In this document: in pieces, positions 3,813-9,333 of the stretch | Numbering within the stretch: position 1 is the first letter of the stretch | Layout of the letters: every line of letters starts with the position of its first letter | Source: a virus | Taxonomy: Duplodnaviria > Heunggongvirae > Uroviricota > Caudoviricetes | Reading direction: 5' to 3' (one strand) | Length of the DNA stretch: 33,447 bases | IMG/VR virus record: IMGVR_UViG_2734482556_000012 | Translations under genes and position numbers: made by a program | Notes under the pieces: generated by a model | Seen by the model: only the letters and a program-made list of their open reading frames with translations | What the model was told of the DNA's origin: nothing | Databases searched by the model: none

Positions 3813-4008
3813 GCTTCACCTCGATCGGCTTGATGGTATCGATCAGCAGTCGGCGGCGAGTATTTTCTGCAAAGTGGCGGCGTCCGGTTTCTTTGTGGTA
3901 AAACTCGTTTTTTCCGACGACCCACATCCGCTTTGTCTGGTGCAGTTTTTTTACCTGCGGACCGTCTCGGGTGATAACAATTCCTGTATGAGTTTTTATC
4001 ACGCTCAT
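3805..4008 (-). CDS. hypothetical protein (67 aa)
   Basis: ORF with GGAG RBS 8 nt upstream; ATGA overlap with the upstream gene. Confidence 0.4.
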   Translation of the reverse strand: MSVIKTHTGIVITRDGPQVKKLHQTKRMWVVGKNEFYHKETGRRHFAENTRRRLLIDTIKPIEVKHV

Positions 4009-4367
4009 TTCTTATTCTCCGGTGCTTTTGGCATTACTGCCCAGTGAGTGATATTGACGTTTTCAAGGTCCCCGACCTGAAATGTCCACTGCCATTCTCC
4101 GGTTTCTTTTTGTCCCCAGGTGTACCAGAGGGAACGCCAGCCAATCAGCCAGCCTTCTCCGTTAGCATCAAATAACAGAACACTTTCATTTGCTGGCGGC
4201 AGTTCAGCTGACACTGGTATTATTTTGTTTTCCAGTGCCGCACATTTAGCTTCAAGCGCGTCGAATTTACGTACCAGGTACTCGGCATTTGTTTCGTTCA
4301 CTTTCAGATCTCGCGGTACACATTTTCCGCGAAGAAACCCTTCCATTTCGAAAACATTCATGCGCAT
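4005..4367 (-). CDS. DUF551-like protein (YfdS-like)
   Basis: C-terminal GEGWLIGW...THWAVMPKAPE Trp motif; 120 aa; overlaps the HD gene stop. Confidence 0.45.
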   Translation of the reverse strand: MRMNVFEMEGFLRGKCVPRDLKVNETNAEYLVRKFDALEAKCAALENKIIPVSAELPPANESVLLFDANGEGWLIGWRSLWYTWGQKETGEWQWTFQVGDLENVNITHWAVMPKAPENKK

Positions 4368-4894
4368 TTGCGTAACTCCGATAACTCGTTAAAACGTTCC
4401 ATAAACATCCCGTAGGCATGGCCCGGTGCCAGTGGAATCACGTTGAACATCTCTGTTGCCGGGATGCCTTCCAGTACAGGCCAGAAAGAGCCATCATCAA
4501 GCCCGAGATCGCGGCGTTCGGTTGCCAGCATGATGAGATCGGCATATTTCACAGGTGTGCTCATAACCGGGGGTAACCCGTATTTCTCACGGATTACGGC
4601 ATCTATTTTTTCTTCCATCCGTTTATAGTCAGGAAGAAGGCGTTTCAGTGGAGCGGGGATGTCCTGGCAATATGCTTCTGTTGCATCATGCATTAACGCT
4701 TCAAAAGCAAATTCCTGCGGTACCAGCTGGCTGCAAAGCACCGCATGCTGGGCGACACTGTAGAAGTGTGAAAGATGTCCTGCAAAGCGACAGATATTTG
4801 AAAGGGAAACAGCGATATCGTTAATAACGATGTCATCTTTATTTATCTTGTCATAATAAAAATGCTTCCCGGAAAAAGTTTTAATAAATGACAT
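4358..4894 (-). CDS. HD-domain phosphohydrolase (YfdR-like 5'-deoxynucleotidase)
   Basis: H...HD metal motif (SVAQHAV...ALMHDATEAY); ATG 4894 with GGAG 6 nt upstream; 178 aa. Confidence 0.6.
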   Translation of the reverse strand: MSFIKTFSGKHFYYDKINKDDIVINDIAVSLSNICRFAGHLSHFYSVAQHAVLCSQLVPQEFAFEALMHDATEAYCQDIPAPLKRLLPDYKRMEEKIDAVIREKYGLPPVMSTPVKYADLIMLATERRDLGLDDGSFWPVLEGIPATEMFNVIPLAPGHAYGMFMERFNELSELRKCA

Positions 4895-5021
4895 TTTGTT
4901 CTCCACGTATATGCGCTGCACCGCGCTGAATTCTGGTAAAAGGAAGCCCTCACCATCCGGTGATTATTGAGTTAATTACGTTTCCATAAATGCCCCCGCA
5001 GGGGCATTTGCAGTAATGAAA

Positions 5022-5911: not shown

Positions 5912-6274
5912 TTAATGACCTGCTGCGCGGAGTTTTCCGTCAGGCTCACCGGCAAGAGTCAGTAATTGTCCCTGGTCTTCCTGCAGAATAGTCAGGCGAC
6001 CACCGCGATTGACATACATCGGCGTTTCGGTGGTGTCTTCTTCGGAAATTTTCCCGCGGTTAGTCGGGCGAACATATGAGAGTTTGTGTTTGATTTTCAC
6101 ACGGTTCTCATCAAACGGTTCGATTTCCAGGTTGAGCGAGACCTTACCTTTGGTTTTCGTGTTCATCACACCGGAAGCGACTTCACTGAGAACTGCGCCG
6201 ATTTTGGTTTCAAATACGCCGCCGTCCAGCTCCCCGATAAATGCCTGCACATCAGTACTGCGTTCGCTAGCCAT
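5912..6274 (-). CDS. hypothetical protein (YfdP-like, 120 aa)
   Basis: ATG 6274 with GAGGAG upstream chosen over the longer track ORF; first gene of the leftward operon. Confidence 0.4.
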   Translation of the reverse strand: MASERSTDVQAFIGELDGGVFETKIGAVLSEVASGVMNTKTKGKVSLNLEIEPFDENRVKIKHKLSYVRPTNRGKISEEDTTETPMYVNRGGRLTILQEDQGQLLTLAGEPDGKLRAAGH

Positions 6275-6321
6275 TTGCTGCTCCTCATCATATCGACCCT
6301 GCAAGGTCGGTTGGTTTCTCC

Positions 6322-6409
6322 ACAAAACAGAGAAGAACACCTGCGGTGCAGCCGCCCGGATGGATTGGGTTATGAGCCCGTCGTCCGGTGATGCTCTTCT
6401 CTGTTTTGT
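6322..6409. repeat. 15-bp perfect inverted repeat (ACAAAACAGAGAAGA / TCTTCTCTGTTTTGT) enclosing a 58-bp GC-rich spacer with internal hairpins
   Basis: Arms at 6322-6336 and 6395-6409 are exact reverse complements; lies in the pL leader 48 nt upstream of the first early-left gene. Confidence 0.85.
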
Positions 6410-6867
6410 AAAAAGAGCGGTACCAGCCGGAAGCAAGTGTACAAACTGGTACCGCCAAAGCAGTGGCTGTTGTGGTGGGGTTGTCACTCAGGCGTATGGT
6501 CAACCTGACAATCCGGTGTCCTCAACGGGGAAAGAGTAACCCCGCCATACTTACCGCCGCGCCATTTCGCGGATTACCACAACGCTGAGAGCACTTAGCC
6601 AGTTACGGCACCACACTTTGTCGCGGTTCCATAAATGCCATCATCGTTGCACCCTGGTCTCTTCCCAGGCGTCAAACCGAATCGCCACGCTGGTTAGGCG
6701 TCTTATCAGCATCCTCATTGACTTGCACATTCCGGCTACCTGGTTTGTTTGCCCGAGCAAGGAGTGGATTGTCCCCTTTAACGTCCCCAGACCGCTAACG
6801 ACGCATGTGCCATACGCCGTGTTACAACCAAATTTTGTTTGAATCTTGCCTGCGGCATGTTTCTTTT

Positions 6868-6884
6868 AGATACATTATGTATCT
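6868..6884. promoter_or_regulatory. 17-bp perfect palindrome AGATACATTATGTATCT, candidate operator
   Basis: Exact palindrome overlapping the -10 of the candidate pL. Confidence 0.4.
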
Positions 6885-6901
6885 CAAGGGTACATTGTCA
6901 A
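6874..6901 (-). promoter_or_regulatory. candidate pL promoter (-35 TTGACA, 16-bp spacer, -10 CATAAT)
   Basis: Read on the minus strand: TTGACA at 6901-6896 and CATAAT at 6879-6874, directed leftward away from the repressor gene. Confidence 0.45.
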
Positions 6902-6903
6902 GT

Positions 6904-6928
6904 ATAAAAAAACCTGCCGAAGCAGGTT
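6904..6928 (-). terminator. rho-independent terminator downstream of the repressor gene
   Basis: Minus-strand hairpin (AACCTGC/GCAGGTT, loop of 4) followed by U7; 12 nt past the repressor stop. Confidence 0.55.
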
Positions 6929-6939
6929 ATAAATATTGA

Positions 6940-7614
6940 TTAGGCCTTTATTTTGTATCTTCTTGGTTTTCCTGAGAAAATTACTGTACCAATTATAGAG
7001 CAATTACCGTTAATCTTAATGTAAGGCTCAGGCCAGTTTGGGTTTAATGCTTTGAGATAACGCTGTGTTCCATCTTCTATCAATCGCTTGAAGGTGGTTT
7101 CGCCTGTATCGTGCATCAATGCAATAACGTCGTCACCGTGGCAGGCAGGGACTTCGGGATCAACAAAAATCATGTCTCCCGGGCGGTACTCATCAATCAT
7201 TGAATCACCAATCACCCGCAAGATATAAGTCATTTCGCCACAGGGTACAGGGCAGGGATAAGTTTCTGCTGTGCTCAAATCAACCTCAGAATAGCCAACT
7301 TCTTTCCATGCTCCGGCCTGTACCCATGATATGACAGGGACTAACGTTATTTGTTTGTTAGTGATTGAAACATCAGGTTTTTTTGTGATGTTCGTGGTCT
7401 GGTGTTCTTGATCAAGCCATCCGACAGGCAGGTCGAAACATTTTTCGATGTGCCGTGCCATGCTGTCACCGATATTTTTAGTAGCACCATCTCCCATAAA
7501 CCTGCTGGTCTGGGTTGGCTCGCGATCAATCATGGTGGCAAAGGAAGAATTCCCGCCAACACCATCTCTCAGTTTTCTGGCGTTAGACCGCCGGATGTCA
7601 TGGACTGTTTTCAT
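6940..7614 (-). CDS. cI: CI-type prophage repressor (N-terminal DNA-binding domain + S24 LexA-like peptidase domain)
   Basis: C-terminal half aligns by eye with lambda CI (VISWVQAGAW Ala-Gly site, GDSM Ser, FKRLIEDG...LNPNWP Lys); no RBS before ATG 7614, suggesting a leaderless mRNA. Confidence 0.85.
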   Translation of the reverse strand: MKTVHDIRRSNARKLRDGVGGNSSFATMIDREPTQTSRFMGDGATKNIGDSMARHIEKCFDLPVGWLDQEHQTTNITKKPDVSITNKQITLVPVISWVQAGAWKEVGYSEVDLSTAETYPCPVPCGEMTYILRVIGDSMIDEYRPGDMIFVDPEVPACHGDDVIALMHDTGETTFKRLIEDGTQRYLKALNPNWPEPYIKINGNCSIIGTVIFSGKPRRYKIKA

Positions 7615-7936: not shown

Positions 7937-8500
7937 ATGAGGCTAACCGTGGGTAAGCATCACTGGAAAGTAGAAAAACAGCCTGAGTGGTACGTGAAAG
8001 CTGTGAGAAAAACTATCGCGGCGTTGCCGGGGGGGTACGCTGAAGCTGCTGAGTGGCTGGATGTAACAGAGAACGCTTTATTCAATCGCCTTCGTGCAGA
8101 TGGCGATCAGATTTTCCCGCTGGGATGGGCAATGATTTTACAGCGCGCGGCTGGCACTCACTACATTGCGGATGCTGTCGCACAGTCTGCTGGTGGAGTG
8201 TTTGTATCGCTTCCTGAAATTGAGGAAGTAGAGAACGCCGATATAAACCAGCGCCTGCTGGAAGTCATCGAACAGATCGGGAGTTACTCAAAGCAGATTC
8301 GTTCGGCAATCGAAGATGGGGTAGTGGAGCCACACGAGCAGACAGCAATTAATGATGAGTTGTATCTGTCAATTTCGAAGCTCCAGGAGCATGCAGCACT
8401 GGTCTACAAAATCTTTTGCGCTCCAGAAAAGAGTGACGCCCGCGAGTGTGCAGCTCCGGGCGTCGTGGCGTTTTGTGTCTGTGGAGAAACTAACGCATGA
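7937..8500 (+). CDS. CII-like regulatory protein (HTH + coiled coil; YdaT/CII position)
   Basis: Position directly after cro; N-terminal HTH-like segment and C-terminal heptad region; start 7937 or GTG 7949. Confidence 0.35.
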   Translation: MRLTVGKHHWKVEKQPEWYVKAVRKTIAALPGGYAEAAEWLDVTENALFNRLRADGDQIFPLGWAMILQRAAGTHYIADAVAQSAGGVFVSLPEIEEVENADINQRLLEVIEQIGSYSKQIRSAIEDGVVEPHEQTAINDELYLSISKLQEHAALVYKIFCAPEKSDARECAAPGVVAFCVCGETNA

Positions 8501-9333
8501 ACAGTTTAACGGCAAATAACCGTTTGTCGCAACAGCTGGTGGTCAGTGTCGCTGAACACCTGTTGTTACGGCATGAATGCAGATTACCAAATCACCTGGC
8601 TGTAAGTAACCACAGAGAACTTTACCTGACTGTGGGGGGCGAGTTGTGCAGGAACTTAACCGCTGGTTTCGTGACGGAAGAGGGCTTTATGTCCATGTTA
8701 TTCGTTGGGAGCCAGAAACACAGCGCGTTATCTATCTTCGCAAAGACTACCCGCATGAGTGCTTTAGTCCTTTGTGGAAATTCAGGCGTGATTTTGTTGA
8801 GTGTGAAGGACCACCAGCACATTGATTCTGCCATTCCGGGACGTTACACTGTTCAGGCACCTTATAAAGCGGGTGCCGGGATTGGCGTCCTGGAAATGTT
8901 ATCGGCGATATATGACGCGCCAGCGTCTTTTTTATCGTTTGCGTCTGTGCACACCCAAATTATGGTGGGCTGGACGGGGGCACCGAAAGGTGCGCCGGTT
9001 TCCGATAACGCCGGTTACGCCAACCCCGTTCAGTTCACCACCAGCGAAATTGGCGTTTCCGGTGGTGAAGGTAATTCACTGTTATCGGAGGCTGCCATCA
9101 TGGCTACTGTCCCAGCCCTCACTCGTCTGAATGATGAAGACTTACATAAACTCAGTTATGTAACAACTGCACTACGTGCTCTGCGCAAGGTAACTCTTTC
9201 GGATCCGCAGGCGCATCAGGTTCTGGTAGAAACCCTTCTTAACTTGCAGGCTGAACGTATTCGTCTGGCGGATAAGGCTAATTTTCATATTCACCGTCTC
9301 CTGAATATCAGCGGAGGGCATCGTCATGCTTAA
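8497..9333 (+). CDS. hypothetical protein; reading frame of the 5' third uncertain
   Basis: Only long ORF here, ATGA-coupled at both ends; a second protein-like frame is open over 8610-8825. Confidence 0.35.
   Translation: MNSLTANNRLSQQLVVSVAEHLLLRHECRLPNHLAVSNHRELYLTVGGELCRNLTAGFVTEEGFMSMLFVGSQKHSALSIFAKTTRMSALVLCGNSGVILLSVKDHQHIDSAIPGRYTVQAPYKAGAGIGVLEMLSAIYDAPASFLSFASVHTQIMVGWTGAPKGAPVSDNAGYANPVQFTTSEIGVSGGEGNSLLSEAAIMATVPALTRLNDEDLHKLSYVTTALRALRKVTLSDPQAHQVLVETLLNLQAERIRLADKANFHIHRLLNISGGHRHA

Follow-up and report, generated by a model that had tools for sequence, protein, structure and literature searches.

Genes and signals flanking the pL leader

The stretch of DNA analysed here, referred to as the window, is the whole of the 33,447 nt IMG/VR virus record IMGVR_UViG_2734482556_000012 (Caudoviricetes). 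It represents a lambdoid phage or prophage near cdtI, Ayreon, 2H10, mEp460 and Stx2c-converting phages, with a leader identity of 98–99%. On the minus strand, a repressor gene of the Peptidase S24 type (6940-7614) is followed by its terminator (6928-6911). Beside this terminator, where a preliminary description of the DNA had placed a near-consensus leftward promoter, a promoter scan identified pL as TTGACA-16-CATAAT (6901-6874), which matches the consensus at 11 of 12 positions. Operator-like palindromes flank pL (6857-6895), and transcription probably starts near 6867. The first early-left gene (5912-6274, minus strand) encodes a YfdP-like protein of 120 aa and is succeeded by DUF2303, HD-phosphatase and DUF551 genes. 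The long leader reported to precede it measures 593 nt and is free of ORFs; the ATG lies at 6274-6272, so that the boundary of 6275 given previously was off by one base. The leader ends in a conserved tail (6272-6309, minus strand) composed of the small hairpin CGACCUUGCAGGGUCG (6309-6294), a Shine–Dalgarno sequence GAGGAG (6286-6281) and the start codon.

The preliminary description had also remarked on the lack of an N-like gene, and this was borne out by inspection of the ORFs: there is no N-like or arginine-rich ORF of at least 20 aa in 6275-6866. Likewise, when ten flanking early ORFs were compared with Pfam and PHROGs, none matched an antiterminator N family, and the arginine-rich N gene that directly follows pL in phages of the lambda type was found neither in the leader nor among these ORFs. 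The promoter scan revealed no promoter-like site between pL and the first gene, and therefore the early-left mRNA must derive from transcripts that read through the leader terminator described below. Folding of the whole leader is more favourable than that of shuffled sequences on both strands (z = -4.5 for minus, -3.9 for plus). The comparison with Rfam that had been suggested left the leader without any family match. At the gathering score, Rfam 15 yielded only a C4 and an isrK RNA in the whole window, both outside the leader, and a scan of 6150-7000 at E values up to 10 returned only noise.

Structured RNA modules of the leader

In the direction of pL transcription the modules are ordered as a core RNA (M1), a long stem (M2), a module at the tRNA position (M3), a terminator (M5) and the inverted repeat. 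The core is a double-pseudoknot domain of 178 nt (6645..6822, minus strand; covariance model hit of 145 bits, E 4e-45) located about 45 nt past the inferred pL start and 240–500 nt upstream of the repeat. Its nested helices are P1 (6819-6815/6803-6799), P2, which closes a variable hairpin (6791-6788/6742-6739), P4 (6701-6698/6690-6687) and P5, which carries the loop GAAGAGA (6669-6665/6657-6653); all four covary. In pseudoknot PK2 (6695-6692/6678-6675) the P4 loop CACC pairs with GGUG, and a C-G pair is replaced by A-U in 12 distinct sequences, including the window. Pseudoknot PK1 (6810-6805/6730-6725) joins the P1 loop GCACAU to AUGUGC with 100% complementarity and is almost invariant, so that its support consists of invariance and complementarity only.

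Across the core alignment, 98.6–98.7% of cells are paired and 10–12 pairs have changed on both sides. The covariation score is 0.29–0.31, compared with 0.12 in shuffled alignments (0 of 500 reach the observed value), and slid controls are 26–49% paired; because the alignment (A3) was fitted to the model and its sequences are related, the shuffle counts overstate the significance. G-U pairs are frequent, including an invariant U-G in P2, which identifies the minus strand, transcribed from pL, as the sense strand. Several unpaired stretches are invariant, namely AGCGGUC, GGUAGCCGGAAUGUGCAAG, GGCGAU and the GAAGAG loop, although homologues were gathered by means of exact 15- and 18-mers from the core, a procedure that makes the segment concerned look more invariant than it is and narrows the range of taxa reached. 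The covarying helices, the two pseudoknots and the long loops of invariant sequence are, to judge from these alignments, typical of a functional fold. The core matches no Rfam 15 family, and the covariance model, run over the entire window with filters off, found no second copy (next best E = 0.17). On sequence comparison, the core is a new, undescribed RNA family.

The M2 long stem (6580..6649, minus strand), defined by folding and comparison, is formed by CAACGAUGAUGGCA and UGCUCUCAGCGUUG around a variable insert. Its 3′ arm corresponds to a family-wide, boxA-like junction, GUGCUCUYNNCGUUGUGG, found in 22 of 35 representatives; in the window, the boxA-like string UGCUCUCA at 6593-6586 is this paired 3′ arm. 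The boxA pattern YGCUCUUUA occurs in the window at chance level and is absent from the pR strand. The next module, M3 (6469..6583, minus strand), is a cloverleaf-like domain closed by GUUGUGGU and ACCACAAC, according to the general closure pattern GUUGUGG.../...CCACAAC. It sits exactly where phages of the phiV10 type carry a genuine tRNA-Arg(UCU) and is tRNA-like elsewhere. In the window its fold energy is unexceptional (z = -0.96), ARAGORN predicts no tRNA, and M3 has no match to the Rfam tRNA family. The module at the M3 position of contig L100, roughly 560–700 nt past the core, resembles a tRNA that has D and T arms, includes CAU in a loop and carries a large insertion, which is consistent with a derivation of M3 domains from tRNAs. 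We also considered, and rejected, a pairing of core P1 with the M3 loop: the perfect 9 nt complement (6810-6818/6491-6499) exists only in the window type of M3, and by chance alone a length of 600 nt should contain about 0.7 matches of this kind.

Immediately 5′ of the repeat on the pL transcript is M5 (6410..6456, minus strand), an intrinsic terminator that was overlooked in the preliminary description because its loop is 15–19 nt. The stem GGCGGUACCAG.../...CUGGUACCGC (6456-6417), a 13 bp G+C-rich hairpin of -21.2 kcal/mol (z = -4.1), is followed by UCUUUUU (6416-6410), and the two defining features of an intrinsic terminator, G+C-rich hairpin and U tract, are therefore both contained within 6456-6410. 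The consensus is UUGGCGG...CCGCC(C)UUUUUAC. In relatives we found 44 sequence variants with at least six versions of the stem, all of which retain pairing and the U tract; pairing was judged from these 44 listed variants, as bulges preclude a clean gap-free alignment. The homologue in phage TL-2011b was called a terminator by a terminator scan.

The repeat that drew attention to this leader comprises, as reported, two exact 15 nt arms (6322-6336 and 6395-6409) separated by 58 nt; its distance from the first gene is 47 nt and not the 48 nt given. The arms extend to 25 nt at 84% complementarity (6322-6346/6385-6409), and as RNA the element folds into a 25 bp helix (6316..6414, minus strand; 6414-6390 with 6341-6316) that encloses a cargo of two hairpins. 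In the window the helix consists of 25 consecutive pairs including G-U, with a folding energy of -50.9 kcal/mol (z = -6.4; 0 of 200 shuffles as good). It reaches beyond the arms first described (RNA coordinates 6409-6395 and 6336-6322) because UUUUUAC of the terminator pairs with GUGGAGA; that is, the U tract of M5 is bound by GUGGAGAA within the repeat helix.

Conservation with compensatory change, which had been proposed as a check, was established with 14 variants taken from the window, SfV, and IMG/VR and GTDB contigs. Of the cells in 24 aligned pairs, 97.3% are paired, and seven pairs have changed on both sides (examples are A-U replaced by C-G and G-C replaced by C-G, each in six sequences). 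None of 500 shuffles matches the observed values, and slid controls are 43–54% paired. These data support the portion of the preliminary description that allowed for a structured RNA or a processing site, and a helix of this length is the standard shape of a substrate for RNase III, an enzyme that acts on near-continuous double-stranded RNA of at least about 22 bp. We infer that the repeat is a processing site, probably for RNase III. Several helix positions are U-G in nearly all sequences, from which it follows that the helix forms only in minus-sense RNA and not in DNA or in the antisense transcript.

The window has a single copy of the repeat. Wherever the repeat is present among the loci fetched, it lies after the terminator and before GGAGAAnCUAAC, the small hairpin, and the Shine–Dalgarno sequence and ATG; the gene downstream varies, while the position of the repeat does not. 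We rejected the repeat as an intrinsic terminator because its 3′ arm leads into GGAGAAAC without a U tract, as had been noted correctly.

The apical part of the repeat consists of two small hairpins that exhibit compensatory changes of their own (CCGGA/UCCGG, CCAGG/CCUGG, CCGGG/CCCGG). The tip of the first, GGG-CUCAUAA-CCC, belongs to the 14 nt sequence CGGGCUCAUAACCC (6367..6380, minus strand), in which three G-C pairs close the 7 nt loop CUCAUAA. The anticodon arm of the initiator tRNA of E. coli contains the same sequence (14 of 14 nt), including the three G-C pairs and the CAU loop, and the minimum free energy fold forms the hairpin. The match has a blastn E value of 1e-4 for this single comparison, which stays below about 0.01 when roughly 50 tRNA species are allowed for, and none of 2000 shuffles reaches 14 nt. 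The 13-mer GGGCTCATAACCC is present in one copy per locus in 39 phage loci, and CAU is retained in every cargo variant.

Distribution and reassortment of the modules

The modules exist and fold as pL-sense elements that are widespread and that reassort independently. A comparison of about 35 contexts revealed that every part of the 590 nt leader recurs as a reassorting module. For example, window positions 6577-6820 share 83% identity with an intergenic part of TL-2011b, a podophage that is unrelated; there the homologous stretch lies immediately 5′ of a tRNA-Arg(UCU) on the same strand and the unit of core and tRNA closes with two tandem intrinsic terminators. The core is found in 79 phage records that include P1, P7, D6, phiV10, TL-2011b, SPN1S, Tyrion and Klebsiella phages, and also in SJ46. 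In phiV10, SPN1S, Tyrion and the Klebsiella phages it resides in the gap that separates the terminase gene from the portal gene, on the opposite strand. In P1 it is part of the ban operon, which is under C1 control, and is located ahead of ban and 18 nt past tRNA-Ile2.

Matches to the invariant core 15-mer, among those listed, include more than 120 IMG/VR contigs, which fall into 35 clusters at 90% identity. A covariance model (R1) built on 23 representatives gave 93 hits in IMG/VR viral loci and identified 23 GTDB contigs, 22 of them from 19 Enterobacterales species genomes and the other from a metagenome-assembled genome labelled Bacillota, which is probably contamination. By megablast, the core region is present in 1376 of 5426 complete E. 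coli genomes, with 256 places on plasmids; no annotation lay beneath the core match among 30 E. coli matches listed. In 48 of 130 contexts a tRNA lies within 700–900 nt of the core, without exception on the strand of the core. Phages of the phiV10 type have tRNA-Arg(UCU) immediately 3′ of the core, and P1 and D6 have tRNA-Ile2(CAU) 18 nt 5′ of it.

The unit of terminator plus repeat is more common still. It is carried by 2492 of the 5426 complete E. coli genomes, in up to five copies per genome, and the sole annotation beneath it among the matches listed is ‘hypothetical protein’. SfV has an M2-like junction, M3, M5 and the repeat, with a protein gene in place of the core. Contig L029 contains two tandem cores (3992-4155 and 4799-4960) about 800 nt apart, with an opposite-strand ORF between them. 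The absence of the core from SfV, the unit counts of 2492 versus 1376 genomes and the tandem cores of L029 establish the core as an independent module. Six contigs (L007, L010, L016, L018, L060 and L072) carry a long-hairpin module, CACAACUGAAAGCGCG...CGCGCUCUCAAUUGUGGAG, upstream or downstream of the core, and its arms resemble those of M2 and of the repeat. This resemblance suggests that the hairpins are related cassettes of one family that differ in their cargos.

None of the GenBank and RefSeq records examined names a leader module as RNA. In cdtI, Ayreon, mEp460 and UTI89, GenBank lists plus-strand ‘hypothetical proteins’ over the core (window 6618-6842, with homologues in L001 and L160), antisense to the pL transcript. 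We rejected coding by these ORFs, as the frame is lost across the variable hairpins between relatives because core lengths, which range from 152 to 184 nt, differ by non-multiples of three. The ORFs are most likely spurious. The invariant core 15-mer was not found in any paper searched, and the literature surveyed on P1 ban, phage structured RNAs, N-less lambdoid phages and Pas sRNAs yielded nothing on the leader elements.

Possible processing and functions of the leader transcript

We propose, with moderate confidence, that the pL leader is a polycistronic structured-RNA precursor that is joined to the early-left mRNA and processed in the long helix. Transcription from pL would produce the core, M2, M3, M5 and the repeat, followed by the early-left mRNA. 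A share of transcripts would stop at M5 to give a non-coding RNA of about 450 nt. In those that read through, the U tract of M5 and the repeat would fold into the 25 bp double-stranded helix, which would then be cut, most likely by RNase III. Such a cut would separate the RNA modules from the mRNA and set the 5′ end of the mRNA, and hence its stability and translation, while the core may act as a discrete RNA on a conserved host partner. Both the cutting by RNase III and the efficiency of termination at M5 are deduced from RNA shape alone. Several observations suggest that the RNAs are themselves products: the core always has the orientation of an early unit under repressor control, it is flanked by tRNAs in many contexts, its unit in TL-2011b closes with two tandem terminators, and the unit of terminator plus repeat can do without it. 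Where tRNAs flank the core, their processing would define its ends.

A host operon provides a precedent for this architecture. The metY-nusA-infB leader comprises a promoter, a tRNA, intrinsic terminators that serve as attenuators, RNase III sites and the first ORF (PMC6511841). There, the pre-tRNA is physically linked to the mRNA, rimP is preceded by two terminators, and the tRNA is excised at RNase III sites, a release that affects the downstream mRNA (PMC6511841). The phage leader has the same order of parts, with the long helix as a putative RNase III site, and its repeat carries the anticodon arm of the initiator tRNA. It differs in adding the core and M2, and in the window a tRNA-like domain takes the place of the tRNA. 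We rejected homology with the metY leader of E. coli, as only the 14 nt anticodon arm matches.

Phage leaders with processing hairpins provide a second comparison. The lambda N-leader and the early RNase III sites of T7 feature a long double-stranded hairpin in the early leader upstream of the first ribosome binding site, and these hairpins separate the upstream RNA from the mRNA and tune translation and stability. The repeat likewise forms a long double-stranded hairpin just before the ribosome binding site of the first gene, and we infer that it is a further example of this familiar type of leader processing hairpin. The window leader differs in having neither a nut site nor an N gene, and its repeat helix takes in the U tract of the preceding terminator and bears the anticodon-arm mimic as cargo.

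Small structured RNAs that are freed from longer early transcripts, beside tRNAs or by tRNA-processing enzymes, are familiar from other phages. Species 1 and 2 of T4 are stable RNAs co-transcribed with the phage tRNAs, and the c4 RNA of P1 and the CI RNA of P4 are processed regulatory RNAs. The core is larger than these, is pseudoknotted and is common to lambdoid, P1-like and phiV10-like phages, and Rfam scans gave no sequence or structure match between it and T4 species 1 or 2, P1 c4 or P4 CI-type RNAs. By analogy, the logic of phage tRNA operons that yield stable RNAs would be the same as that proposed here for the pL leader.

A more speculative view, which we regard as a tentative possibility, is that the leader constitutes an early ‘RNA island’ whose products act in trans on host machinery. 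These products would be the double-pseudoknot RNA, the tRNAs or tRNA-like modules and the initiator anticodon-arm mimic. VapC-type toxins cleave initiator tRNA in the anticodon arm, and candidate targets of the island could include tRNA-targeting defence nucleases, for which the RNAs might be decoys or inhibitors, the 30S P site or IF3, for which they might compete, and RNA polymerase, which they might modulate. If this is true, lambdoid, P1-like and phiV10-like phages would share a new class of factor that takes over the host or counters its defences by means of RNA. The modules are found in P1, in several Shiga-toxin and cdt phages and in a quarter to a half of sequenced E. coli genomes.

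Against the precursor model it can be said that M3 of the window is not tRNA-like by ARAGORN or Rfam and has an unremarkable fold energy, and that a promoter-proximal core upstream of a terminator in an N-less phage fits an antiterminator RNA as well. On the rival model of cis-acting processive antitermination, which we consider rather unlikely as the main explanation, the core, with or without the boxA-like M2 arm and Nus factors, would replace N by modifying RNA polymerase, so that polymerase from pL passes the leader terminator and later ones, as with put in HK022 or the rrn leader. The lack of an identified N-like gene is in accord with this idea, as is the placement of the core close to the pL start and ahead of a conserved terminator, beyond which transcription has to continue if any early-left gene is to be expressed. 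That so many unpaired bases of the core are invariant suggests binding to a conserved host machine. Moreover, mEp460 shares the leader and has no annotated N, and by its name it belongs to the mEp phage collection, which has been described as Nus-dependent (PMC11893012). A near-perfect rrn boxA is found only in three IMG/VR contigs (L091, L035 and L048), where it follows the core and a hairpin at about 120 nt past the core and reads GCUCUUUAACAAU, GCUCUUUAAUAAU or GCUCUUUAAAAAU; these strings suggest that Nus-factor antitermination signals are present in some core-bearing leaders. In the window, however, the boxA-like string forms one arm of a stem and occurs no more often than chance would predict.

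The HK022 put element offers a precedent for such an RNA. Like HK022, the phage is an N-less lambdoid in which pL is followed closely by a structured RNA that might need no phage protein to act. As described, put is about 70 nt in length, has two stem-loops and no pseudoknot and lies after both pL and pR; put and nut sites occur as L and R pairs (PMC9378689). The window core, in contrast, is 178 nt with two pseudoknots, is dispensable in relatives and is single-copy, with a sole covariance model hit (6822-6645) and no counterpart in the pR operon, where a separate terminator is present (8914-8927). By eye, putL and putR read from the HK022 genome exhibit no similarity to the core or to the repeat. 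The proposal in the preliminary description that the repeat is a put-like antiterminator is not supported, given that the repeat is downstream of the leader terminator, lacks this similarity and is single in the window; only the core could plausibly be a put analogue. Further observations weigh against antitermination by the core: the terminator-plus-repeat unit occurs without the core in SfV and in more than 1000 E. coli genomes, two terminators close the TL-2011b unit, genes farther downstream in related Uetakevirus contigs seem by eye to possess an operator and promoter of their own, and the core of P1 is 2.3 kb from Pban with no terminator before ban. Processing of the precursor and antitermination are not mutually exclusive, and the partner of the core could reveal how N-less lambdoid phages run the early-left operon, or alternatively a new anti-host phage RNA.

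We think it improbable that the leader is an attenuator in which the core, as a riboswitch-like aptamer for a ligand or factor, sets the frequency of stopping at the leader terminator. A compact pseudoknotted core with invariant unpaired bases and a conserved terminator downstream on the same transcript are what such a device would contain. However, the distance from core to terminator ranges from about 150 to more than 600 nt, with tRNAs, modules and even ORFs inserted, the core and the terminator stem showed no alternative pairing, P1 carries the core but lacks the terminator, and no riboswitch family was matched even at E values up to 10.

Least probable, and very unlikely, is a DNA-level role, in which the repeat is a Correia-like miniature transposable element, a cruciform or a protein-binding palindrome and the remainder is a recombination linker: the long terminal inverted arms around a short insert, the presence of up to five copies per E. 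coli genome and the reassortment of modules among unrelated phages accord with it, but the arms change in a compensatory manner without keeping a binding sequence, the many G-U pairs, which are A-C mismatches in DNA or in the other strand, work only as pL-sense RNA, and mobility as a miniature inverted-repeat element was rejected because the context is fixed in every fetched carrying locus and the arms covary.

Two further structured RNAs lie on the plus strand of the window, inside an ORF (8497-9333) that is annotated as ‘immunity region’ in relatives and belongs to the Pfam Ash family. One is an RNA of the isrK family (8857-8933), whose own terminator is at 8914-8927, and the other is a C4-type antisense RNA (8958-9045). 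A pairing of either RNA with the pL leader was rejected, as only 7 nt matches were found and these are equally common in shuffled sequences. From its sequence, this region looks like an RNA immunity module of the P1/P4/Gifsy type in the pR operon.
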